IMG/VR virus record: IMGVR_UViG_3300049038_000008
Coordinates: 1-57,935 of that record
Source of the DNA: a virus
Taxonomy: Duplodnaviria; Caudoviricetes
Strand: one strand, 5' to 3'
DNA length: 57,935 nucleotides
Below the pieces are notes generated by a model. That model ran no database searches. It was not told the DNA's origin and saw only the letters and a list, made by a program, of their open reading frames with translations. Of the stretch, positions 2,093 through 56,872 are shown piece after piece. The position numbers and the translations under genes were made by a program. The number at the start of each line of letters is the position of its first letter. The stretch's first letter is position 1.

Positions 2093-3268
2093 TTATCCGT
2101 TTGAAGCTTTGTCCTTTTCATCCTCTCCGAAGTCCATTGTTAGTAGTTCGGTTGCCTCTTCCATCGTGTCGGCAGTCGGATGCGCGTAAATTAACAAGGT
2201 CGTTTTCTTACTGTGTCCGGTTATCGCCATCACCTGAGATAAGGGGAGCTTCTTATTCACAAGGTATGTTGTCGTGCTATGCCTGATGGTGTGAAAGACC
2301 GCGCCGCCTGTCTTTAACCCGTAATGGATGCCCACACGCTTGCAAGCGTTCCTGTAAGCGCGTCGAATCATTCTGCCAAAATCATTCACAACCTGAGACT
2401 CTGGCTTAAAGACATAGCGGCCCGGATTCTCTACGATTCGTCGTTTCAAAATCTCTGCCACATTGGAGGTGATCGGAATAACCTTTGGTCTATTCGTCTT
2501 GGCGTTCTTGATTGCGAGGTATCCATGTTTATAGCCGATGCCACGTTGAAAATGCACCTGCGATTTTTCGAGCAAGGCAAGCTCCGATATTCGCATCGTG
2601 GTTTCGATACCGACGATCACCACATCACGCGCTAAGGCTCTCCGCTGGCGTTCAGGGAGGTTTGAATCAGGCACGGGGTCTTCTAATGCCTTCACGACCT
2701 TCAATAAATCTTCACGGCTCAATACGACCTCACGACCTTGATGTTGTAGTGGCAATCTCTCATAGTCGGGTGGTTGCCAGTTGAAACCGGGGAAGAGTTT
2801 CGGCGCGGCTCTCAGGCAAGTCCGTATCATATCTAATTCTTTATTGATGGTGTGCGGATGAATGTCGGATTGCAGCCGGGTTGCCTGGTACTCAATAAAA
2901 TGGTTTTCGTTTAGTTTGCGGAGTTCCTTAGAATGAGAAACAGTCTTTAGCCGATTGATGTAGGTTTCAACCTCATTGATGCGCTTCTGGCTTAGTCCTC
3001 TTATGGTTGCTTTTCGCTTCCACGCAGACAACAGGGCATCTAAGGTGATGGCTTCATTCTCATAACCGAGTCGATTCGGGTTGCGCATCAACAATTTGAA
3101 TTTGGCTAGTTCATCTTCGGCTTTTTCTTTATTCTCCCACGTGGCCTTTTGATACTTCTTGCCTTCATATGTCCAACGATAGCCATAGCGAATCAGGCCG
3201 GTTTTCGTCTTGACCTTAATAATATTTGTGCCTTTGTAAACCTTGATGATTTTGACCGCCATAATCAA
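2093..3268 (-). CDS. int: Tyrosine recombinase (phage integrase)
   Basis: Catalytic set TTMRISEL (R), KNAKT (K), HTIRH, TGH, IYAH (Y); 391 aa with arm-binding-like N-terminus. Confidence 0.93.
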   Translation of the reverse strand: MIMAVKIIKVYKGTNIIKVKTKTGLIRYGYRWTYEGKKYQKATWENKEKAEDELAKFKLLMRNPNRLGYENEAITLDALLSAWKRKATIRGLSQKRINEVETYINRLKTVSHSKELRKLNENHFIEYQATRLQSDIHPHTINKELDMIRTCLRAAPKLFPGFNWQPPDYERLPLQHQGREVVLSREDLLKVVKALEDPVPDSNLPERQRRALARDVVIVGIETTMRISELALLEKSQVHFQRGIGYKHGYLAIKNAKTNRPKVIPITSNVAEILKRRIVENPGRYVFKPESQVVNDFGRMIRRAYRNACKRVGIHYGLKTGGAVFHTIRHSTTTYLVNKKLPLSQVMAITGHSKKTTLLIYAHPTADTMEEATELLTMDFGEDEKDKASNG

Positions 3269-6341: not shown

Positions 6342-6683
6342 TGTTTGAAAAAGCAAAGCGTGAGATTCCCGCACCGATGGCATGAACACCCGTCAGTCCT
6401 TACGCTTTGCAGATTTTTGTGAAGGCATTTCAGGCGGCGTTGGTATATCGGCTAAAACCTGAGCCTGGTGCCTTCACAGACGATAGATATTTGAAATGTG
6501 CTGGCGTGGCGAAACGGTAAACGCATTTTGGCTGCTACATAAAGATGATTGAATCCGTCCCGCGCTCTGATAGTCCTTTAATGGAACATCGCGGTGTAGC
6601 TTACAGGTTCAAATCCTGTCGCCAGCATTTTGCCACTCAACCGTACCCAAAGCAGGGGCCGAGTGTTAGGGGTGGGTGGCGAA
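6340..6683 (+). ncRNA. Structured RNA array 1a: four stem-closed modules
   Basis: Closing stems 6353/6410 GCAAAGCGT:ACGCTTTGC; 6418/6478 TGTGAAGGCA:TGCCTTCACA; 6500/6626 GCTGGCG:CGCCAGC; 6631/6681 TGCCACTCA:TGGGTGGCG; boxA-like TTTGAAA motifs at 6340 and 6486. Confidence 0.65.
6500..6627 (+). ncRNA. tRNA-like RNA (Leu-type body, no canonical anticodon arm, very large variable arm)
   Basis: 7-bp acceptor stem; UG linker; D arm GCG-AAACGGTAAA-CGC; T arm ACAGG-TTCAAAT-CCTGT; discriminator A; 128 nt; no encoded CCA. Confidence 0.75.
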
Positions 6684-6905: not shown

Positions 6906-7121
6906 GCTATTTGAAAAAGTTTGGCTGCCGCATTGAGGGCACGGGATAAGACGGTCAATTGACTGGCTTCTGCGCCGGATTTGTAATCTGGGTCACGCCG
7001 ATACCGTGAGCGACCTGAACGGCAGCCAATACCCCTTGCGCTCTTCACCCGTTTGCGAGTCTGAAAGTCCAAAGCGAAAGGTGAAATTTCCCGCATAAAT
7101 CTCCAGGGGGTGGAGGCGCAG
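6906..7121 (+). ncRNA. Structured RNA array 1b: two multibranched modules
   Basis: boxA-like GCTATTTGAAAA at 6906; TTGGCTGCCG(6921):CGGCAGCCAA(7029) enclosing CACGG:CCGTG and an anticodon-like hairpin; TTGCGC(7036):GCGCAG(7121) enclosing TTCACC:GGTGAA and CTCCA:TGGAG. Confidence 0.6.
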
Positions 7122-7135
7122 AGATTAGAGAAAAG

Positions 7136-7756
7136 GTGAATATGGAATATCACAAAATTGAAACGCTTTATGAGCGTGATGAAAAATTCAAGGTTCAACC
7201 AGGGGTGTTTAAGAATCGCACCTACACGCTACTTAAAGAGTGGTGGTTTACCGAAAAGATTGACGGCACCAACATTCGCTGTAACTGGAATGCCGCCGAT
7301 AAGAAAGTGGCATTTGGTGGGCGAACCGACAACGCACAAATCCACGCTGACCTAATTAGATGGCTCTATGAAAACATCACAGTGGAGAAAATGACAGCCC
7401 TTTTCCCTGAAACAAATATTGTCCTCTACGGTGAAGGCTACGGCGCAGGGATTCAAAAAGGTGGACTCTATAGCCCTGTTAAAAAGTTCATTCTCTTTGA
7501 TGTGCTGGCAGATTCAAGATGGTGGCTCAATTGGGAGAACACTGTTGACGTTGCGAATAAATTGGACATTGAAGCCGTTCCATTTATCGACGTGATGACG
7601 CTTGAGGATGCCACGGAGTTTGTACGGCGTGGGTTCTATTCAAAATTAGGTGACGGCACAATGAAGGCTGAAGGTGTGGTTGGTAGACCAGCAGAAACGC
7701 TATTCGATAAGAAAGGTAGTCGGTTAATTCTCAAACTGAAGACAAAGGATTTTTAG
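7136..7756 (+). CDS. RNA ligase, Rnl2-family adenylyltransferase domain
   Basis: YHKI, motif I TEKIDGTN, LYGEGYG, FILFDV, AEGVVGRP, ILKLK. Confidence 0.85.
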   Translation: MNMEYHKIETLYERDEKFKVQPGVFKNRTYTLLKEWWFTEKIDGTNIRCNWNAADKKVAFGGRTDNAQIHADLIRWLYENITVEKMTALFPETNIVLYGEGYGAGIQKGGLYSPVKKFILFDVLADSRWWLNWENTVDVANKLDIEAVPFIDVMTLEDATEFVRRGFYSKLGDGTMKAEGVVGRPAETLFDKKGSRLILKLKTKDF

Positions 7757-14186: not shown

Positions 14187-14384
14187 ATGGCTATAAAACG
14201 CAATGCGCAAGTTTATAAAGTGAAGGCAAAAATTCAACGTGATGGAATTGAGGATTACTGGCTTAGAGTCGGAACAGCCGCAGAGTGTGAAGGCGGGAAA
14301 ATAATTATTACGCTTGATGCGCTTCCATTGCATTCAAAAGGCGTATTGATGCTTTTCCCTAAAGATGCAGAAGGGGAAGTTTAG
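14187..14384 (+). CDS. Conserved small phage protein
   Basis: YWLRVGTA...ITLDALP pattern; AGGTG RBS. Confidence 0.6.
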   Translation: MAIKRNAQVYKVKAKIQRDGIEDYWLRVGTAAECEGGKIIITLDALPLHSKGVLMLFPKDAEGEV

Positions 14385-14436
14385 TACTGAAGTAGCCACC
14401 CACCCCGGCAGCGGGCGGCGAGAGAGAGGGAGAAAG

Positions 14437-15510
14437 TTGATAAACTTTGACTTAGTACAAAAAGAAATAGAAACCGGCTACATCGCGGTACAACGCCACC
14501 CGACTGAGAATCTGCGAATCCTGAACTACACGGCAAAGGCGCAGTATGACCAACGATGGACTGATGAGGTGAAAATATGTCGTGGTCTTATCGTTGACGG
14601 TGATAATCAAATCGTGGCGCGACCCTTTGCAAAGTTTTTCAACGCTGACCAACACCAACGCTCTGACCTCGTTTGGTCAAAGCCCTTCACTGTGACCGAA
14701 AAGCTAGACGGCTCATTAGGGATACTCTACAAGACGGCGAACGGGTTGTTCATTGCGACGCGGGGTAGTTTTACGTCCGAGCAAGCAAACAGAGCAACCG
14801 AAATTCTGCACGACAGATACCTTGATATTGTGGTGCCTGATGGACTCACGCCGCTATTTGAAATCATCTATCCATCTAATCGAGTCGTGGTTGACTACGG
14901 CGACCTGAGCGATTTGATTTTACTGACGGTGATTGATAATCAGACCGGCGCTGATGCAGCCTGTAGCCCACAGGAAGCGGCGAAGCTCATCAATTGGTCT
15001 GGCAGGGTGGCGCAATCGTATCCGATTGAATGCAAGCCAACTGATGTCATTGCGGCGCTCGGTTTGCCGCAGGATGGAAGCGTGGAAGGAATCGTTTTGC
15101 GGTTCGATTACCCCAAAGGTCAACACACGCGCATTAAGGTTAAGACCGACGAATACAAGCGCCTTCACAAACTAATCACGGGCGTCAATGCGCGGCATAT
15201 CTGGGAAGCGTTGCGCGATGGCTTACCGCTGGAGCCGCTTATTGAGCGTGTGCCGGATGAGTATTATCAATGGGTGAAGGCGACAGAGAAAGAATTGCGG
15301 ACGGCCTATGCCGAAATCGAAATGCTTTGCCAGTCTGATTACAAAGGACTGAGAAAAGCGATTGCGCAATACTTTCAAACCTGTGCTCATCCAGGCGTTT
15401 TGTTTTCTATGCTTGATGGCAAGGATTACAGCAACCATATTTGGAAGCAAATCAGACCACAGGCTGCACGGGCTTTTAGGTGTGATGGCGAAAGCGAGTC
15501 CACCCCATGA
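14437..15510 (+). CDS. T4 RnlA (Rnl1)-family RNA ligase
   Basis: ILNY, CRGLI, ARPFAKFFN, motif I EKLDGSL, ATRGSF, FEII, EGIV, IKVK; TTG start after GGGAG. Confidence 0.9.
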   Translation: MINFDLVQKEIETGYIAVQRHPTENLRILNYTAKAQYDQRWTDEVKICRGLIVDGDNQIVARPFAKFFNADQHQRSDLVWSKPFTVTEKLDGSLGILYKTANGLFIATRGSFTSEQANRATEILHDRYLDIVVPDGLTPLFEIIYPSNRVVVDYGDLSDLILLTVIDNQTGADAACSPQEAAKLINWSGRVAQSYPIECKPTDVIAALGLPQDGSVEGIVLRFDYPKGQHTRIKVKTDEYKRLHKLITGVNARHIWEALRDGLPLEPLIERVPDEYYQWVKATEKELRTAYAEIEMLCQSDYKGLRKAIAQYFQTCAHPGVLFSMLDGKDYSNHIWKQIRPQAARAFRCDGESESTP

Positions 15511-18526: not shown

Positions 18527-20059
18527 GTGGCTTCGATACTCAACCGAATGTGGACAGCAACAGTAGCAGCGACAAATACCTGGCGCGACGTTTTCGCTAA
18601 CCCGCAAGAGCCGCTGAGCGACAGCCAATCGGCGCGGCTCAGTCGCTATGCCTTGCTTTGGTCTTACTACACAAATTCGGCGTTTGAGAATCTACGCAAT
18701 TGGTCACTGTATCGGGAGAATTACAACCTCTATCGCTACACGCGAAGTATCTACAACCCGACTCAGCGGTTAGTTGATTTCTATGTTGACCACATTTATC
18801 CAGGGGTATTGAGTGAAGACGGAAGCCGGTTGCCAAGCGGGGTACAACTTGCGATTCCGCTGGCAGACGATACCTCAGACAAACTCAAGATTGCTATATC
18901 TCAACTCTGGCAATGGTCGAACTGGCAAGACGGTTGCGGGTTGATGGTGCGTTATGGCGGGGCGATTGGCAGCGTACTTGTCGAGGTGATGGATGAGGTC
19001 GAGAGAAGCAAGGTCACGGCGAATGTTGTCTATGCAGGCCACGTCAGCGAGATTGAGACAGATTCCACGGGCAATGTCCAATTCTATGCTTTGGAATATC
19101 AGGCGATTGATGACGATGAGCAAGCCTACACCTACAGGAAGGAAGTAGATCAAGAGAGTTTCAGGACGTTCAAGAATGACGCACCTTTCGGCTTCAATGG
19201 TCAGCCAGCAGAGTACGAAAACCCTTATGGATTCGTGCCAGCCGTTTGGATTAAGCATATCAATCAAGGTGGGGATTACGGGGTGCCAGCCCTTCGCGGT
19301 TCGATTGGCAAGATTGATGAGTTGAATAGTTTGGCAGCGCATTTGAATGACCATATTCATAACTTGATTAAGAATCCGATTCTCATTGGCTCATCCGGTG
19401 CGATCTCATCCCTGTTCAAAGGCAAGGCGGGGCAGGCTACCGAGGTGCAGGAATCAGACACCAACGGGCGGCAAAGTCAGATATTCCTCAAAGGTCCGGC
19501 TGATGTTGGCGTGCATAAGCTATCGGGCAATATAGATTTGGATAAGGCGCTGCCTTACCTCAAGGAACTTTTAACCGAGATTGAGCACGACTTTCCAGAA
19601 TTGACCTTTTATCAAGAACTCCGCGAGATGAGCCAGGTCACAGGACCAGCCGCCGCAAGGCTCACAGGTGATGTGGGCAATCGGGTAGTCAAAGCCGCCG
19701 CACAGTATGACCTACAGAGCATTAAGCTTTTTCAGATGATGACGGCGATTGCGGGTTGGCGGCTGAGTACAGGCGCGTGGGCAATGGTGAGCCGTCAGCA
19801 AGAGAAGTTCAGACCGTTTGACCTGACTTCGTATGCAAAGGGCGACTTGGATTTTGCCATAGTGCCGAGGCAACTCATCACCCTAACTGAGACTGAGGCC
19901 ATTGCCAATGATAAGGCGCGGGCTGAAGCTGTGAATTTGAAGGCGGATAAGATTTCAGATAACCAGTGGTTCAGAGAGATGGGCTACAGCGAAGAGGATA
20001 TGCAGTTGATTCAATCTGAGAAGGCAAGTTTGGATGTTGTGCCGTTGGAGGTTCAATGA
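18527..20059 (+). CDS. Portal protein
   Basis: 510 aa, directly after terminase; YENPYGFVP motif typical of SPP1-like portals. Confidence 0.85.
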   Translation: MASILNRMWTATVAATNTWRDVFANPQEPLSDSQSARLSRYALLWSYYTNSAFENLRNWSLYRENYNLYRYTRSIYNPTQRLVDFYVDHIYPGVLSEDGSRLPSGVQLAIPLADDTSDKLKIAISQLWQWSNWQDGCGLMVRYGGAIGSVLVEVMDEVERSKVTANVVYAGHVSEIETDSTGNVQFYALEYQAIDDDEQAYTYRKEVDQESFRTFKNDAPFGFNGQPAEYENPYGFVPAVWIKHINQGGDYGVPALRGSIGKIDELNSLAAHLNDHIHNLIKNPILIGSSGAISSLFKGKAGQATEVQESDTNGRQSQIFLKGPADVGVHKLSGNIDLDKALPYLKELLTEIEHDFPELTFYQELREMSQVTGPAAARLTGDVGNRVVKAAAQYDLQSIKLFQMMTAIAGWRLSTGAWAMVSRQQEKFRPFDLTSYAKGDLDFAIVPRQLITLTETEAIANDKARAEAVNLKADKISDNQWFREMGYSEEDMQLIQSEKASLDVVPLEVQ

Positions 20060-42640: not shown

Positions 42641-43222
42641 GTGATGCCAGGAAGCAATATCAGAACAGTGTGTGACGCAGACCACGAGTGCTATTTATTA
42701 GCCGTGGATGATGATGACGCCATTCTTGACATACTCGGTGAAATCTTTACACCGCAAACCGGCATCACGCTGTTAAAGGCCACCTCATTAACTGAGGCGC
42801 TGGAGGTTATCAGCACAACGCCAAAGATCGAAATCATTTTGTTAGATTTGCGCCTGGGCGATTCTGACGGCATCGACACATTGAAAGTCGTGGTGGAGGC
42901 AGTGAACGGGCGCACAGCAATAATAGCGATTTCAGGCTCACACGAATTGGAGGATGAAGCTGGTAAGAATGGCGCAATTGATTTCTGGGGCAAGCCGCTA
43001 CTTCAAATAGATATGATCGGCAGGGTGAAGTTTGCCATTATGAACCAGCGGAAGATTAATCATCAGATTCATCTATCTGAGGACTTAAAGCGGGAGATTG
43101 CCGAGATTCAAGCCAAGTTGGAAGTCAGGCCCACACAGAGGGATTCAGAAGCCATAGAGAGGCTTTCCGTGATGAGTAAGAAGTTGGATAACTATGCCGC
43201 TGTACTAGGAGGAGGTCATTGA
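42641..43222 (+). CDS. Orphan response regulator (REC domain plus coiled coil)
   Basis: LLAVDDD; IILLDLRLGDSDG (phospho-Asp); IIAISG; GAIDFWGKP. Confidence 0.9.
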   Translation: MMPGSNIRTVCDADHECYLLAVDDDDAILDILGEIFTPQTGITLLKATSLTEALEVISTTPKIEIILLDLRLGDSDGIDTLKVVVEAVNGRTAIIAISGSHELEDEAGKNGAIDFWGKPLLQIDMIGRVKFAIMNQRKINHQIHLSEDLKREIAEIQAKLEVRPTQRDSEAIERLSVMSKKLDNYAAVLGGGH

Positions 43223-47369: not shown

Positions 47370-47512
47370 TTGCACTAATCATTTGCATACTCGGATTAAT
47401 CGTCTATGCCATTTCCGCGGGAAGAAACGCAACAGCCGCGGAGATCGGTAGAATAGCTTTTGCTATGGGCCTATTGGCGTGGCTGCTGACGGGTGCGAGG
47501 GTGCCGGTATGA
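47366..47512 (+). CDS. 48 aa two-TM membrane protein
   Basis: Manual translation MIALIICILGLIVYAISAG...EIGRIAFAMGLLAWLL; GGAGG RBS. Confidence 0.6.
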   Translation: MIALIICILGLIVYAISAGRNATAAEIGRIAFAMGLLAWLLTGARVPV

Positions 47513-47943
47513 AAAGGCTATGGACTACCTTTCTCACGCTCTCACCCCTTGCGCAAATCGGGCTGGTGCTTGGGCCGTTGGTGGTGATGGCGCTGGTGAG
47601 CGGTGGGGTGGGCGGGTGCGTGAGCAAAATCAAAGACCGCCGCTTTGATGCCGCCATTCAAAAGGAACGTGCCGAGCGTGATAAGTTCAAGCAAAAGGCA
47701 GATGAGGCGGAAGAAAGGGCTAAGGCTGCCGAGGCAGACAAAGCGCGATACCAGGCGGCTTTTGAGATCGCAGGCACTAAGGCCCAAGCCGCAATGGATA
47801 AGGTGCAAGATGCAGAGAATAAATTTAACCAAGAAGTTGCTGACATTTCTAACCCTGTTGACCCTTGCGAACGCCTCAAACGGATTCGCGCAAAGCTCGG
47901 TCTACCCGAAACCGCCTGCACCACAGAAGAAAATCCAGATTGA
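47509..47943 (+). CDS. Inner-membrane spanin-like protein (Rz-like)
   Basis: N-terminal TM, Ala-rich coiled coil, C-terminal Cys residues. Confidence 0.65.
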   Translation: MKRLWTTFLTLSPLAQIGLVLGPLVVMALVSGGVGGCVSKIKDRRFDAAIQKERAERDKFKQKADEAEERAKAAEADKARYQAAFEIAGTKAQAAMDKVQDAENKFNQEVADISNPVDPCERLKRIRAKLGLPETACTTEENPD

Positions 47944-48283
47944 TGAGGCGACTCTAGTTGAAATGGAGAAGGCTTTGGCCGAGAGGGACAAACTCCGTGT
48001 GCAGGTAGATGCTCAAAAGGCTGTTATAATAGCCAAAGATGAGCAGATTTTGGCTTTACAGGGGGTTTTGAAAGTCCAAGAGCAAATCGCCTCAGATTGG
48101 AAGGCCGCCGCGTTAAATCGCAAATCTGCCATCACCGCAGATGAAGCCCTTTTCAAGAGATACGATGATGAGGTTGCCCGATTGCGGCTTGAGCGGGATT
48201 CTGCCCGACGCAATAATCTACTCTATGGCGCTGTGGGTACGGTGTTTGGAATTGCGGTTGGGGTGGTGGCGAGTAGAAAGTGA
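47810..48283 (+). CDS. Overlapping spanin partner-like protein (signal peptide, coiled coil, C-terminal hydrophobic segment)
   Basis: Starts inside the Rz-like gene in another frame (MQRINLTKKLLTFLTLLTLANA...); no lipobox Cys; Gly-rich hydrophobic C-terminus. Confidence 0.6.
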   Translation: MQRINLTKKLLTFLTLLTLANASNGFAQSSVYPKPPAPQKKIQIDEATLVEMEKALAERDKLRVQVDAQKAVIIAKDEQILALQGVLKVQEQIASDWKAAALNRKSAITADEALFKRYDDEVARLRLERDSARRNNLLYGAVGTVFGIAVGVVASRK

Positions 48284-48442
48284 TTAAGCCCACGGTGGGT
48301 CAGTAGTCCACTGTCTCGGCTTTGGCTCTGGATAATCGGGGTTGTAGTTTAACAACCTGCATAGCGCCGCCATCTGCTCACTGCGCTCAACGAAAGCAGC
48401 AATTCGTTCCAACTCTTCATCTGTGAATTTTGTTTCTGCCAT
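48284..48442 (-). CDS. Small hypothetical protein, 52 aa
   Basis: Manual translation MAETKFTDEELERIAAFVE...; GGAG RBS; convergent with the lysis operon. Confidence 0.55.
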   Translation of the reverse strand: MAETKFTDEELERIAAFVERSEQMAALCRLLNYNPDYPEPKPRQWTTDPPWA

Positions 48443-48655
48443 TTAATCTCCGCCCGCCCGTTTTTCCAACCCTCTCAACCAGCCGATTTGCTTGCCGCTG
48501 ATGTATTTGGATTTTTCCGCCCGCCGCTCCATGTTCAGAATAAACCCCGCCTCAACTAAACTGAATCCACCTATTACTGGTTTAAGTCTAGCTATAATTT
48601 CTTTAGTCTCTATTACTCTCTTTTCACTTCTAGCTTTAGAGTTATTTAGTTTCAT
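48443..48655 (-). CDS. Hypothetical protein
   Basis: EAGFI..M....ISGKQIGWLRGL pattern; start probably MKLNNSK. Confidence 0.6.
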   Translation of the reverse strand: MKLNNSKARSEKRVIETKEIIARLKPVIGGFSLVEAGFILNMERRAEKSKYISGKQIGWLRGLEKRAGGD

Positions 48656-48659
48656 AAAA

Positions 48660-49071
48660 ACCTTGAGGGTCACTAGATTCAAGGCAACCACGCGAGAAGA
48701 CGGCTAATTCGGCGCAAAATCAAGGCTATTGCCCTTTTGCATCCTACTAAAGCGTCGTATTCTCACGCGAAGCTAATATGATTAAGGGTACTACTGGTTA
48801 ATTGGGTCACTGAGTTCGCGGCTCTTTTCGCGTAAAGGCAACGCTCTGCAAAGGTCTTGAACCTTCACCCGTGGCGGTTATCTTGTACCACGGGAGTTTC
48901 TGAGCGGGAAGACGACCAGGGTTCAACTTATTAGATTTCCCCCTGCGACAACGCTTATCTCGCTGCACAGCCAGTCTACAGACGAGCATTAGGCGACTCG
49001 GAACCCACGATTCAAATGTGACCGTGGCTCGCCTCATTTTTCCAAACACCTTAACCATATTGTCAATGAAC
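48660..49071 (-). ncRNA. Structured RNA array 3: boxA plus several stem-closed modules
   Basis: GTTCATTGACAAT at 49071-49059; modules 49034-48991, about 48985-48910, 48906-48842 (T-arm mimic) and 48769-48689 (stem closes with G-U pairs on the minus strand only). Confidence 0.6.
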
Positions 49072-49139
49072 TATTCAGTTTTTGTGCTGGCTATTTTCGT
49101 CTTTTGCTGAAACAACGGGGTTGCCTAATGTTTCTCCGG

Positions 49140-49340
49140 CAAATGAAAAAGCCCGCTTCTCTGAACGTGCGATTGTGGAATTACCTCTAAGGCGGATTGC
49201 AAGAAGATGAAACAAGTTGAGGTTGCGCGTTCTTCAAAACGGGCTTCGACTGGGTTTCCCCAGGCTACTCATAAACTGTCAATACATCTTCTTGCCTTTA
49301 GCCCAATAAGTGACATTCCACAGTCACATATCAGAAAGGC
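49140..49340 (-). ncRNA. Leader RNA with C4/CI-like antisense/attenuator architecture
   Basis: 5' hairpin loop TGTGGAAT complementary to downstream ATTCCACA; 97-nt unit closed by GCAAGAAGATG:CATCTTCTTGC; AAGCCCG:CGGGCTT followed by a T run. Confidence 0.6.
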
Positions 49341-49341
49341 T

Positions 49342-49370
49342 ATTGTATCAAAGATGTAGTGCTTTAAACA
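49342..49370 (-). promoter_or_regulatory. Putative leftward promoter (extended -10)
   Basis: TGaTACAAT at 49350-49342; shares CACTACATCTT with the 18.3-kb promoter. Confidence 0.55.
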
Positions 49371-49446
49371 ACACCTAAGTACAAGCTGTGGTGTTTTTTC
49401 TCATCCCCCTCCGGCATCGCGGTTGGCTAAAGCAGAAAATGCACGG

Positions 49447-49692
49447 TTAAAACTTCCGGCGTAAAACCAACTTAGTGTTTTCAACCGTTTCACATTCAAC
49501 ATCCGTTATTAGTGCATCGGGGTATTTGTCCCGATAACCGCGCACCACGATGCCGACTTCAAAAGCTAAACCCCAGACGGTGACATTCTCGAAATCCTTA
49601 CCCCTGCAATAGCAAGCCGTCACCCTTAATCCCGTGGTGTTGTACCATCCCACGTTAACATGAACGCTATTTGCTGTCCCTTCAAGATTCAT
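49447..49692 (-). CDS. Hypothetical protein
   Basis: Probable start MNLEGTANSV with GGAG RBS. Confidence 0.5.
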   Translation of the reverse strand: MNLEGTANSVHVNVGWYNTTGLRVTACYCRGKDFENVTVWGLAFEVGIVVRGYRDKYPDALITDVECETVENTKLVLRRKF

Positions 49693-49840
49693 CTGTGTTC
49701 TCCAAATCCCCCACCGGCACCACCAACCATCTGACCCCTTCACCCTCAAGCGCGATGATGACGTTATCCGGGGTTTGGTCAATGATGACGCCACGGCCAT
49801 ACTCTTCGTCTTCAACGGTTTTGCCGATTAGGGGTTTCAT
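49682..49840 (-). CDS. Small SH3-like hypothetical protein
   Basis: MKPLIGKTVEDEEYGRGVII pattern; start re-set from the ORF track. Confidence 0.5.
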   Translation of the reverse strand: MKPLIGKTVEDEEYGRGVIIDQTPDNVIIALEGEGVRWLVVPVGDLENTDES

Positions 49841-49844
49841 TGTT

Positions 49845-50084
49845 TCAATCCACAAACGGGCATTTGCCTTCATCGCGGCAATCAGGGTTGGTCTTACAAT
49901 TAACCCACAGGCGTTGACGCGGCACGTCCCTTTCTTCTGGATGCCGGGGTGCTCGATTCTCCTTGAGGCGCAAGCAACCGCCATCAGGGTCGGTTGGCGG
50001 GTCGTAGGCTTTACAGGTTCCGGCAACCTCATCCGCGTTGCTTGGTAGGTTATAGAATATGCCGTCTAGTTCTACTAAAACCAT
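49845..50084 (-). CDS. Hypothetical protein
   Basis: ORF track; GGGAG RBS. Confidence 0.55.
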   Translation of the reverse strand: MVLVELDGIFYNLPSNADEVAGTCKAYDPPTDPDGGCLRLKENRAPRHPEERDVPRQRLWVNCKTNPDCRDEGKCPFVD

Positions 50085-50130
50085 AGATTTCTCCCCCGCG
50101 CCTACTCACCGGCAAAAGGTGAGTGGCTTT

Positions 50131-50328
50131 TTAGGCGTTATCCCAAGGAATGCTTAACAACTCCAAAGCTTTTTCTAGCAATATTGCCGGGTGCATTTCA
50201 AATACCTTTTCATCGTTGACATAAAGATATGTCGAATCGTTATCAATGGTCAGGCGGTCATATTCACCGAGTTTTAACTCGCCTGATTTAATTGCGTTTT
50301 GTAAACTTTCTAAAGTTTTATATTTCAT
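50131..50328 (-). CDS. Hypothetical protein
   Basis: ORF track; GGAG RBS. Confidence 0.6.
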   Translation of the reverse strand: MKYKTLESLQNAIKSGELKLGEYDRLTIDNDSTYLYVNDEKVFEMHPAILLEKALELLSIPWDNA

Positions 50329-50369
50329 AATCTCCGATTCTCCTCCCCCACGCGCCCGGCGGCAAAGCG

Positions 50370-50684
50370 TCAGCTTTTTACGGCCTTCAAAAACGCTCGT
50401 TCAATATCTCCTATGTCAGACTCGTATTTTGTACGAATCTGTTCAGCTTTTACTGCATAGTCGGTAAGAATATTATTGCACCCTTTACAGATGCGAGGTG
50501 GATAATCGCCGCTATCTTCACCCGTGAACGGATGCTCAGGCAGCCATTTGCCGCAGTCGTAACACACATCTTTACCACAACCAAAGCAGTTTTTAATCTG
50601 ACCACCATATGTAGACTCCTGACCGCAGAAATCACAGAAGGGAACTTTGTTATTGTAAGTTCGAGTAACGGTTTTTATGCCCAT
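50370..50684 (-). CDS. Multi-CxxC Zn-finger protein
   Basis: CDFC, CFGC, CYDC, CKGC. Confidence 0.7.
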   Translation of the reverse strand: MGIKTVTRTYNNKVPFCDFCGQESTYGGQIKNCFGCGKDVCYDCGKWLPEHPFTGEDSGDYPPRICKGCNNILTDYAVKAEQIRTKYESDIGDIERAFLKAVKS

Positions 50685-50842
50685 GGATTTACCCCTTCAC
50701 CTCCTAAAGAAACCAAACCATCTCAGTATCTTCCATACCGCACTTATCACAACGAGTGTCATAGGCAATGCTGACCCTATGGATTCGTCTTTCACCTGTG
50801 CGGTGGTGGTGTTTGCGGTGGAATATGAGGCACCAAAGGTAT

Positions 50843-51286
50843 TTAAGCATCTGTCTTCACCTCCACCGCTTTCAACGCTGCCAAGCAAATCTGCTCAGGC
50901 GATGCGTGCTTGTACATAAATCGGCCTTTTGCATCATCGTAATTGGTCGCTTCACCGACAATATCCCACAGGGCAGCCATATACTCTTCTTGTAGCCCTA
51001 ATTCAGCGATGCGGGTTTCTACGGTGTAGGCGGCGGCAATGTCGGTGGAATATGGCATTGGCTCCCAATACCGAATACGGTCATCCGAGCCGGGACGCAA
51101 CGCAGCAATACGCTCATGCTCTTCGCTTACCCAGTCAAGGGGCGGGTTTGAGCGCCAACCACGGCATTCAGGCCAGGTGCCTATTGCCGGTCTAATGACT
51201 TCCAAGGGAGGGAAGCCCATTAGTTCAGCAATCCTTGCGTCGATCTCCCGCTCATCAATCGGCGTGGGATGGGTCATGGTTAACAT
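50843..51286 (-). CDS. Phage ABA-sandwich-domain-like protein
   Basis: EIDARIAE.MG...PYSTDIAAAY.V...ASPEQICLAAL. Confidence 0.7.
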   Translation of the reverse strand: MLTMTHPTPIDEREIDARIAELMGFPPLEVIRPAIGTWPECRGWRSNPPLDWVSEEHERIAALRPGSDDRIRYWEPMPYSTDIAAAYTVETRIAELGLQEEYMAALWDIVGEATNYDDAKGRFMYKHASPEQICLAALKAVEVKTDA

Positions 51287-51434: not shown

Positions 51435-51839
51435 TCATTTGCCTTCACCTCCAAGAATCAATTCCTGAATCTCCATTGCCGCGTGTGCCTTAGCCTGCGC
51501 AATGATGTACTCAACCTCTTGCTCTTTTGTACGTTCACCCACAGGGATTGCGCCGATTTGGTTGAGTTTATTGAGCCATTCTTTACCATACGAGGTTATC
51601 TTGTTGCTGGCATCGGCCTTGCCTCGTTCATAAGCGGCGGTGTCGGCAAGGGGGCGGGTGTTCCAGACTGAAATAGCAACGGCCTTATTGATGTGCGCCT
51701 TGGTTATTAAACCACAGTTCTTGCAGTAAACGTGGTTTGAGTAAATGCCGAATTGGGTCAATTTCAGGTCGTTAGTACCGCACATTGGGCAAGGTAACAA
51801 AGCCGCTTCCTCTGCCTTCACCTTCTCATCATTCGCCAT
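51435..51839 (-). CDS. Lar-family restriction alleviation-like protein
   Basis: LLPCPMCG...VYCKNCG...AISVWNTR; start MANDEK with AGGAG RBS. Confidence 0.75.
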   Translation of the reverse strand: MANDEKVKAEEAALLPCPMCGTNDLKLTQFGIYSNHVYCKNCGLITKAHINKAVAISVWNTRPLADTAAYERGKADASNKITSYGKEWLNKLNQIGAIPVGERTKEQEVEYIIAQAKAHAAMEIQELILGGEGK

Positions 51840-52033
51840 CACCCATTCTCCTTTCGGCAATTTTCGCAAATATCGGCATAAGTACCCCGTGGTGCTGGCT
51901 GTTCCTGCGTACCGCGAAGATAAGCCCATCCGTCATCTATGGCACGAACCCTTACTTCTGATGCGTGCTTGAAGTCAGTGTCATAACTTACACCGCAATA
52001 ATCGCAAACGAGTGCTTTAACAATCCCCATCAC
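51839..52033 (-). CDS. Small Zn-finger protein
   Basis: CDYCG...GW...DICENC. Confidence 0.65.
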   Translation of the reverse strand: MMGIVKALVCDYCGVSYDTDFKHASEVRVRAIDDGWAYLRGTQEQPAPRGTYADICENCRKENG

Positions 52034-55913: not shown

Positions 55914-56471
55914 TCACTTGACATGCGACCACGTTCTACCAGTTACGGCATCCATCACGGTTGCCCAGTTAAAACCCACCATTGCGCCAAGTTTCCTATA
56001 TGAGATTCCAGATTTTTTCTGTTCCCGGCAATACCTAACCAATTCATCAGTAAGCTTAGCGTTCTTATGGGCTTCACCTTGCACTATTGACTGCCTATTC
56101 CTCTGGACCATATCTCGCGCGTTGTCTTTAGCCGTGCCAGCATAAAGATGTGACGGCCTGACGCACTGCATATTGTCGCAATGATGCAAAATCATTAGGC
56201 CATCAGGTATCGAGCCGTACTCGAATTCGTAAGACACTCTATGAGCACACAGTAGTTTTTTATTCAGGCTGATTCTTCCGTATGGTTGATTTTTTCTAGA
56301 CCTGGCTCCTAGCCATAGCCAGCAAGAATCAACATCATCTATTCGTTGAACGTTCGACCAGTACCGTTTTTCAAAAGAACCCCACTTGCCGCGTTGTGCG
56401 CATCGTATAGAACAAAACCGTCCATAGTTACGGTAAAATTCTTTGCCACAGTGTTCGCATATTATCCTCAT
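55914..56471 (-). CDS. HNH homing endonuclease
   Basis: CWLWLG...YG...AHRVSY...ILHHCDN..CVRPSHL..GT..DN; C-terminal NAKLT HTH; N-terminal CxxC..FCS..C. Confidence 0.92.
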   Translation of the reverse strand: MRIICEHCGKEFYRNYGRFCSIRCAQRGKWGSFEKRYWSNVQRIDDVDSCWLWLGARSRKNQPYGRISLNKKLLCAHRVSYEFEYGSIPDGLMILHHCDNMQCVRPSHLYAGTAKDNARDMVQRNRQSIVQGEAHKNAKLTDELVRYCREQKKSGISYRKLGAMVGFNWATVMDAVTGRTWSHVK

Positions 56472-56872
56472 CGAAAATCTCCATTTTTTAAGTAATCAAT
56501 TAACCGACTCGCGGCCTGTTTAGATAATGATTCCAATTCACACCCCATAACCCTTTCGCACTCATCCCACGGACACACCCGCTTGGCATTTGCCAGCGTC
56601 CTGATTTCGCCCAATTGATATGGCGTGCGAAGAGATTCAAAGTCCATCGCAATGTTGGGGTTGGTGGTTGGCGCTGTGGTGCTCATCCGCCTTCCCCCTT
56701 CCCAAAAAAGTGATTCAAAAATCCTCACGTAATTCTCTTCTACCCTCGTATCAAACCTATTCGACCCCGGCGACGGGCAAGGGTAGTCAGGGTCAATGTA
56801 GGAAGAAAAAGTCCCACAGTCCTTGCACCAGTCGGGGCCGTCATCATTGAATTGGAGTTGGTGGAGGGTCAT
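56468..56872 (-). CDS. Hypothetical protein (possibly two fused small genes)
   Basis: Start MTLHQL after GGAGG; C-terminal TPYQ...LSKQAASRLIDYL motif; internal RBS-like sequence before MSTT. Confidence 0.55.
   Translation of the reverse strand: MTLHQLQFNDDGPDWCKDCGTFSSYIDPDYPCPSPGSNRFDTRVEENYVRIFESLFWEGGRRMSTTAPTTNPNIAMDFESLRTPYQLGEIRTLANAKRVCPWDECERVMGCELESLSKQAASRLIDYLKNGDFR

Follow-up and report, generated by a model that had tools for sequence, protein, structure and literature searches.

A minus-strand structured spacer among the small genes of an uncultured soil phage, and its T-arm look-alike

The spacer, its features and the flanking genes

The stretch considered here, positions 48660-49071 of the Caudoviricetes record IMGVR_UViG_3300049038_000008, lies in the right part of a window that corresponds to the whole IMG/VR virus record (57,935 bp, linear class, with a completeness estimate of 54%). 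An earlier reading of the letters alone, hereafter the original prediction, had described it as a third array of RNA modules on the minus strand, including a tRNA mimic reduced to its T-arm. That the stretch is non-coding and lies within a minus-strand operon holds. The explanation that we prefer, tentatively and with slightly more doubt than trust, is that it represents the downstream ~400 nucleotides (nt) of a 755-nt untranslated spacer and would be the structured 5' leader of the gene at 48443-48655, within an operon of small accessory genes on the minus strand.

The plus strand of the phage carries the primase/helicase, the terminase large subunit, the major head protein and the tail genes, and its last gene ends at 48283; the credible genes from the right record end down to 48284 are without exception small minus-strand genes, one of which, at 51435-51929, encodes a Lar-like restriction-alleviation protein. 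An integrase gene is found at 2093-3268 on the minus strand, and the phage DNA is present in soil metagenome runs: 22 soil or rhizosphere runs, one of which is possibly the source of the record, share words with 47500-51000, no RNA run being listed among the carriers, and four DNA runs were compared with the window, as short contigs only, the uncovered parts being uninformative. This is an uncultured soil phage, probably a temperate one. The gap that contains most of the stretch is the longest internal part of the window without a credible gene, as judged by a crude gene caller, and it extends to 48656-49446 if the open reading frame (ORF) downstream begins at ATG 48655. A 723-nt 'gap' of the same caller, at 56146-56868, was discarded, since ORFs cover it. 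The nine stop-to-stop frames of the 755-nt gap gave no Pfam match and no PHROG match better than E 0.037. Two other origins were rejected: a recoded gene, as reading through TAG, TGA or TAA singly opens no spanning frame, and a decayed duplicate from elsewhere in the phage, the best internal blastn match having an E of 0.93. The features, in order along the minus strand and with lengths of proteins in amino acids (aa), are the following.

49447-49692, minus strand: small ORF of 81 aa with ATG 49692, the upstream limit of the gap; codon score 0.161
48692-49446, minus strand: ORF-poor gap of 755 nt inside the minus-strand operon, from ORF lists and a crude gene caller
49134-49408, both strands: imperfect palindrome of ~275 bp with nested inverted repeats, centred near 49247, upstream of the stretch in the same gap
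49374-49403, minus strand: nine-codon mini-ORF behind GGAGG (49411-49407)
49255-49282, minus strand: TTGACA-N17-GGAAA, copy 1, the GGAAA of which holds the GAAA loop of a 5-bp hairpin
49039-49066, minus strand: TTGACA-N17-GGAAA, copy 2, which includes both 'boxA-like' words
49049-49061, minus strand: 5' strand of a 13-bp long-range helix, present in the minimum free energy (MFE) structure and in the centroid
48807-49058, minus strand: ORF of 83 aa, the longest of the gap, rejected as a gene
48991-49034, minus strand: module A, AGGCGA..TCGCCT around CCACG..CGTGG, not above chance
48917-48965, minus strand: module B, two 5-bp hairpins, not above chance
48842-48906, minus strand: module C, a three-way junction, -25.0 kcal/mol
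48850-48866, minus strand: T-arm look-alike GAAGG-TTCAAGA-CCTTT, a 5-bp stem and a TTCRANN loop with a G-C closing pair
48776-48788, minus strand: 3' strand of the 13-bp long-range helix, in MFE structure and centroid
48689-48769, minus strand: module D, irregular hairpin of 81 nt on a basal stem of 10 bp, -33.2 kcal/mol (plus strand -21.6)
48660-48685, minus strand: last hairpin, GCCUUGA..UCAAGGU, -8.5 kcal/mol, 9 pairs, in MFE structure and centroid
48443-48655, minus strand: small ORF on the downstream side, with 70 aa if it starts at ATG 48655 and 82 aa if it starts at GTG 48691

The downstream ORF most likely starts at ATG 48655; it has a codon score of 0.114 and matched only itself among 5.8 billion proteins, while in the Atlas it resembles viral hypothetical proteins with a borderline value of 0.90, which is uninformative. 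Equally uninformative is the letter-for-letter Atlas entry of the upstream ORF, which overlaps the stop of ORF 49682-49840; the variants of the latter in run X2 (49736, 49751 and 49772) all fall, 3 out of 3, at third codon positions. Two side observations concern other genes of the phage: the small cysteine-rich protein at 50370-50684 (minus strand) has a FYVE zinc-finger match just under threshold (26.2 bits, with a cut-off of 27.8), and a response-regulator receiver domain (PF00072, E 1.8e-12) is encoded at 42641-43222 on the plus strand, amid late genes.

The 83-aa ORF could in principle specify a real, very basic small protein, and its being the longest ORF within the gap speaks in favour of this. 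The original prediction had staked itself on the absence of a conserved protein at this place, and none emerged. The ORF belongs to no Pfam or PHROG family, and a phmmer search against 1.84 billion representatives produced only three matches (E 2.5e-5 to 3.7e-4), which are spurious: all three targets were matched over several stretches (4, 14 and 4), and the two that were aligned, of 2547 and 293 aa, are tandem repeats with 29-36% identity. Moreover, its codon score of -0.002 is at the mean of the null set (0.024 +/- 0.124 in 57 wrong-frame ORFs) and below the 0.094-0.347 of nine neighbouring small genes, no Shine-Dalgarno sequence precedes its ATG, and the translated 87-aa frame of the stretch gave three pattern matches in IMG/VR, none of which was confirmed. 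A genuine protein encoded here is hardly credible.

Minus-strand helices and a possible 5' leader

Every word and helix quoted in the original prediction was found on the minus strand where it had been placed, with GTTCATTGACAAT at 49071-49059 and GTGTTTGGAAAA at 49049-49038. Reading along this strand, the stop of ORF 49447-49692 is followed by GGAGG, the nine-codon ORF, the palindrome, an A-rich linker, a domain of 286 nt, module D and the last hairpin. The 286-nt domain, which encloses modules A to C, is closed by the 13-bp helix (12 Watson-Crick pairs and one G-U). In module A the outer arms are AGGCGA (49034-49029) and TCGCCT (48996-48991); module B consists of the pairs CAGCG:CGTTG (48965-48961/48953-48949) and CAGGG:CCCTG (48945-48941/48921-48917); module C combines a 5-bp closing stem (CGCTC/GAGCG), a 7-bp hairpin (CCCGTGG:CCACGGG), a single T (U in the RNA) and the T-arm-like hairpin. 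The remark that mismatches in the stem of module D become G-U pairs only on the minus strand was right, as the MFE structure of this module has 4 G-U among 29 pairs, and that of module C 4 among 21. After the last hairpin come U5 and then ATG 48655; the 3' arm of this hairpin contains the only Shine-Dalgarno-like AAGG of the next ORF, 5 nt ahead of the ATG.

The folding of the 412 nt is biased towards the minus strand, with -134.4 kcal/mol and a z-score of -2.32 (2 of 100 shuffles as good), against -110.7 kcal/mol and a z of 0.00 (46 of 100) on the plus strand; the bias is real and restricted to the minus strand. It is also seen in the domain 48774-49063 (minus z -1.87, with 8 of 200 shuffles as good; plus z -0.35). 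Individually, only modules D (minus z -4.02, 0 of 200 shuffles; plus z -1.83) and C (minus z -3.41, 1 of 200; plus z -1.38) beat the shuffles; module A reached -1.47 (17 of 200 as good; plus z -1.23) and the 'branched unit' of the original prediction, 48907-48990, gave +0.35 (125 of 200).

We infer that the stretch is transcribed along with the minus-strand operon. The leader would then be laid out as the 286-nt domain (modules A-C) under the 13-bp helix, followed by module D and by the AAGG-bearing hairpin, which would occlude the ribosome site of ORF 48443-48655; as the AAGG lies inside this hairpin, translation of the ORF would need the hairpin to open. The larger hairpins would block nucleases or offer sites to endonucleases, which is what hairpins between cistrons do in other phage operons. 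Phages offer several precedents, namely the RNase III hairpins between the early genes of T7, the sib retroregulator of lambda and leader hairpins that occlude the Shine-Dalgarno sequence. The stretch is similar to these in having irregular hairpins of 60-90 nt, on what would be the transcribed strand and between small genes, the last of which overlaps the putative ribosome-binding site; on the other hand, the spacer is unusually long (755 nt) and has no sequence relative.

The words at the upstream end of the stretch had been called boxA-like; a boxA antitermination signal matches the boxA word of its host and lies, with a boxB/boxC context, downstream of a promoter, and the likeness here is putative. 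The words are present, at 49071-49059 and 49049-49038, but they do not rise above chance. Within the second, TGTTTGGAAA (49048-49039, minus strand) resembles TRTTTGAAA, which occurs on the plus strand at 6342-6351, 6488-6497 and 6908-6917, three copies within 600 nt, each followed after 6-8 nt by the 5' strand of a stable helix (respectively 6353-6410, the tRNA-like gene described below and 6921-7031). This cluster looks real and may be a start or processing signal for a group of structured RNAs. A weight matrix built from its three sites, at 6.3-6.9 kb, ranks the TGTTTGGAAA site 44th of ~116,000 positions, and TRTTTGRAAA has 4 matches, compared with 1.36 +/- 1.17 expected, 6 of 100 shuffles having as many; that this third 'array' belongs with that cluster is thus not borne out. 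As a separate observation, the 21-nt word at 49057-49037 (minus strand) recurs at 48481-48461 (minus strand, 17/21) and at 48234-48254 (plus strand, 16/21), where no recurrence with up to 4 mismatches is expected; one copy spans a mosaic joint at 48469, and the word may be a recombination boundary sequence.

The same region raises the question of whether the gap holds one or more independent small regulatory RNA genes, running for example from near TTGACA 49066 to the hairpin and U5 at 48660. A search of both strands of the window for TTGACA-N17-GGAAA gave exactly two perfect matches, each a minus-strand site of this gap, with ~0.03 expected by arithmetic; moreover, U5 follows the last hairpin, and the long hairpin 49139-49250, with its GC-rich base and U-tract, could end an upstream transcript. 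However, a sigma-70 promoter had to be rejected at either TTGACA, as neither has a recognisable -10 element and a promoter scan found none at the TTGACA sites of the gap, and, the two words apart, the sites have little in common. The hairpin 48660-48685, for its part, has a 12-nt loop and only 4 G-C pairs, which is not the make-up of an intrinsic terminator, where a GC-rich hairpin with a loop of 3-8 nt precedes a U-run, and its U5 runs directly into the ATG; a terminator scan of 48660-49446 on both strands found no intrinsic terminator. We therefore regard separate small RNA genes as quite unlikely.

Several results weigh against the leader reading, the two empty scans among them. The start of the downstream ORF is uncertain, and GTG 48691 as start codon would make the 3' arm of module D and the last hairpin coding. 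The stability of the stretch, despite the strand bias, is ordinary for this genome. In a calibration on 12,620 Lfold windows (structures up to 100 nt, both strands), of which the 130 densest non-overlapping structures of at least 50 nt were tested against shuffles, the structure containing module D ranked 36th of 130 by z, at -4.01, module C was absent from the 130, and at least 35 local structures of the phage reached z <= -4.0, many of them in coding DNA. A composition-corrected regression scan of 2892 windows of 120 nt gave, over the seven windows of the stretch, a mean corrected score of -0.33 on the minus and +0.49 on the plus strand, the best windows, 48681-48800 and 48841-48960, ranking 44th and 133rd. 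Moreover, no diverged relative of the region or of its flanking genes was found in GenBank phages, IMG/VR, JGI metagenomes or GTDB genomes, and the helices are without covariation support: blastn with 48400-49600 against 50,697 phage records gave no match, nor did tblastn with the 510-aa ORF 18527-20059; the exact pattern of module C occurred 0 times in IMG/VR, JGI metagenomes and GTDB genomes; the pattern matches of the downstream ORF (33 in IMG/VR and 547 in JGI metagenomes) and of the primase (2 in IMG/VR) were in no case confirmed, and the 147-aa neighbour had none in IMG/VR. The copies found in soil are identical: seven contig pieces from three soil runs cover 48630-49350 with 0 differences, and a contig of run X2 with identical sequence covers module D. 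The region 48630-49350 is thus maintained in several soil samples; these copies may all stem from the same young phage lineage and, being identical, offer no variants for covariation.

The T-arm look-alike and the tRNA-like gene near 6500

The original prediction compared module C with an RNA near 6500. At 6500-6627 on the plus strand there is a tRNA-like gene, which scores 42.1 bits over the full Rfam tRNA model and is missed by ARAGORN. Between its anticodon and T-arms there are ~56 additional nt, and its anticodon loop can be read as GCU, so that we may have here a tRNA of the serine type, with an insert or a giant variable arm; its 3' half had no exact match in GTDB genomes. Of the two RNA ligase genes of the phage, one (7136-7756, PF09414) lies 500 nt downstream of it and the other at 14365-15510 (phrog_562). 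Just upstream of the tRNA-like gene, the hairpin 6416-6481 has a z of -6.3 on both strands and is among the most significant of the window. Module C and the 6500 element both show a hairpin, a linker, a T-arm and a 7-nt 3' strand, and their T-arm cores are identical at 11 of 13 positions. By contrast, the linker measures 1 nt in module C and 8 in the 6500 element, module C lacks the D-arm and the 7-nt anticodon loop of tRNA genes (RF00005) and of the 6500 gene, and it obtains no Rfam tRNA score, compared with the 42.1 bits of the latter.

Taken by itself, the hairpin at 48866-48850 has the form of a T-loop motif, that is, a 5-bp stem and a G-C pair closing a UUCRANN loop, and to this extent the description as a T-arm was correct. 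The window contains 5 such motifs, where 200 simulated sequences had 1.3 +/- 1.2 and never more than 6. The T-arm of the tRNA-like gene (6603) accounts for one and the look-alike for another, and the remaining 3 lie in coding sequence. In tRNAs the seventh, last base of the T-loop is usually a pyrimidine, unable to pair with U54. In the look-alike it is an A, because of which the loop can be closed by U-A and U-G pairs. In the MFE structure the look-alike is in fact a 9-bp stem with a 3-nt loop, module C having -25.0 kcal/mol compared with -19.8 with the loop kept open, and the pair probabilities are 0.98 for U46-A52 and 0.80 for U47-G51. This predicted closure counts as an argument against a working T-arm rather than as a disproof, as the energy model ignores the tertiary contacts of T-loops.

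The stem below the look-alike has also to be considered. A minihelix substrate of RNase P has ~12 coaxially stacked pairs, the 7-bp acceptor stem being placed directly on the 5-bp T-stem, and a 3' RCCA after the acceptor stem helps the bacterial enzyme. The acceptor-like stem of module C has 5 uninterrupted pairs, or 7 if an A-A mismatch is included, an unpaired G forms a 1-nt bulge between the T-stem and the 3' strand, and the 3' flank reads TTGCC, without RCCA. By simple arithmetic, a 5-bp Watson-Crick closing stem would be expected near a given hairpin in ~20% of cases. Searches for tRNA genes were negative: ARAGORN found 0 in the window; Rfam at E<=10 gave, for 48200-49600, no match of the tRNA clan (RF00005, CL00001) but only ctRNA_p42d at 14.9 bits (threshold 50) and, for the 91 nt 48830-48920, only a 6.3-bit plus-strand match to a vertebrate long non-coding RNA model.

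These data bear on the idea put forward in the original prediction, that the stretch is an array of RNA modules cut from the operon transcript, in which module C is a tRNA mimic without D-arm recognised by RNase P and/or RNase Z. In its favour we can count, besides the T-loop motif with its G-C closing pair, the ~12 pairs that closing stem and T-stem would stack together, and the presence in the same phage of the tRNA-like gene, with its 3' half of hairpin, linker and T-arm, and of two RNA ligase genes. It is also known that bacterial RNase P cuts non-tRNA substrates (PMC4919922) and that Y RNAs carry T-arm modules (PMC4201824). On the other side stand the closable loop, the short acceptor-like stem with its bulge and without CCA, the absence of any score from tRNA-type models and the frequency of such motifs by chance; furthermore, the leader motif shared with the 6500 cluster is unsupported at this site, and no Ro60/TROVE gene is found in the window. 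We judge the mimic idea improbable. Most likely the look-alike of module C does not work as a tRNA mimic but formed incidentally or is a relic, and signalling to RNase P or RNase Z by minihelices is to be regarded as unsupported speculation. A wider version of the idea seems to us very improbable: module C would be a working, D-arm-less tRNA derivative in the 286-nt domain and would form, with the 6500 tRNA-like gene and the units near it, a phage-wide set of tRNA-shaped RNAs, handled by tRNA enzymes of the host (RNase P/Z, modification enzymes) or by the two RNA ligases of the phage, to cut or protect the operon transcript.

The known systems help to put module C in perspective. Non-tRNA substrates of RNase P include the precursor of the C4 antisense RNA of phages P1/P7, operon mRNAs, the mascRNA of MALAT1 and the t-elements of plant mitochondria (PMC4919922). 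Module C shares with them a stack of helices ending in a T-arm-like hairpin within a longer stretch; it differs in that the known cases are close enough to tRNA to be modelled or have a demonstrated cleavage, whereas module C has no score with tRNA-type Rfam models and no CCA, and its loop is closable. The Y RNAs YrlA and YrlB of bacteria and phages carry tRNA-like modules, YrlB having only 'a possible T-arm' (PMC4201824). The likeness is that of a non-coding RNA with a T-arm, encoded in some cases by phages; the difference is that Y RNAs are encoded beside a Ro60 (TROVE) gene, and the stretch has no Rfam match. Identity with a Y RNA was rejected, as PF05731 had 0 matches in the window while the controls were positive, a result that, with the record 54% complete, does not imply absence from the whole phage.

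Palindrome, mosaic joints and significance

Upstream of the stretch, in the same gap, the imperfect palindrome contains inverted repeats of 11/11 (49199-49209/49285-49295) and 12/14 (49168-49181/49315-49328) matching positions. As it folds on the plus strand (z -3.98) no less than on the minus strand (z -3.06), it is a feature of the DNA and not of a strand-specific RNA. REP-, ERIC- and MITE-like elements are imperfect-palindrome repeats. The palindrome at 49134-49408, and only this part of the gap, is similar to them in its ~275 bp of nested inverted repeats, its folding on both strands and the break of a relative at its edge; it differs in being single-copy in the window and in showing no target-site duplication, and a search by its 11-bp arms gave no second copy in IMG/VR either.

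The break just mentioned is that of a 151-nt contig of run X2, which matches 49406-49534 and departs exactly at 49406. This point is the outer limit of the palindrome and separates the GGAGG from the ATG of the mini-ORF, and the mini-ORF itself may be the stump of a replaced gene. This single short contig hints that the sequence downstream of 49406 is a replaceable cassette. Together with contig depths, the same contig, with its 22-nt loose end, gives a weak hint that a more abundant variant lacking 48781-49405 exists in run X2; the letters of the loose end do not occur in the window. Other joints at which contigs match and then depart are found at 47610, 48286, 48469, 49710, 49841 and 50338, and several of these points coincide with gene borders. 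In this region small genes are shuffled as modules among related soil phages.

In such a highly mosaic region, the spacer could also be non-functional DNA, either a scar left by recombination or what remains, after decay, of replaced genes, with hairpins of the kind present in any 750 nt of this genome. Several data agree with this: the stability that is ordinary against the genome background, modules A and B at chance level, the GGAGG and ATG at 49411-49401 that open only nine codons and are separated by the joint at 49406, the further joints at 48286, 48469, 49710 and 49841, and the failure to find relatives of the region. However, an asymmetry of folding between strands is unexpected for junk, useless DNA of 750 nt is seldom retained by phage genomes, no protein remnant survives in any frame, no internal paralogy is seen, and the sequence is identical in three soil runs. 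Non-functional DNA is a possible explanation, which we nevertheless consider doubtful, and we continue to favour, tentatively, a structured 5' leader of the gene at 48443-48655.

The stretch is an orphan, structured spacer of ordinary appearance, and its main value is one of calibration. Hairpins with a shuffle z of -4 occur once in 3 kb of this 58-kb phage, and by chance alone about one T-arm motif of perfect appearance is expected per genome; since both are so common, covariation or transcript ends are needed before a sequence is labelled a 'tRNA mimic'. Should the tRNA-mimic reading nonetheless be shown to hold, a phage example would join the few known tRNA-shaped cutting signals in messenger RNAs, and such a signal would be linked to a phage with its own tRNA-like gene and RNA ligases.

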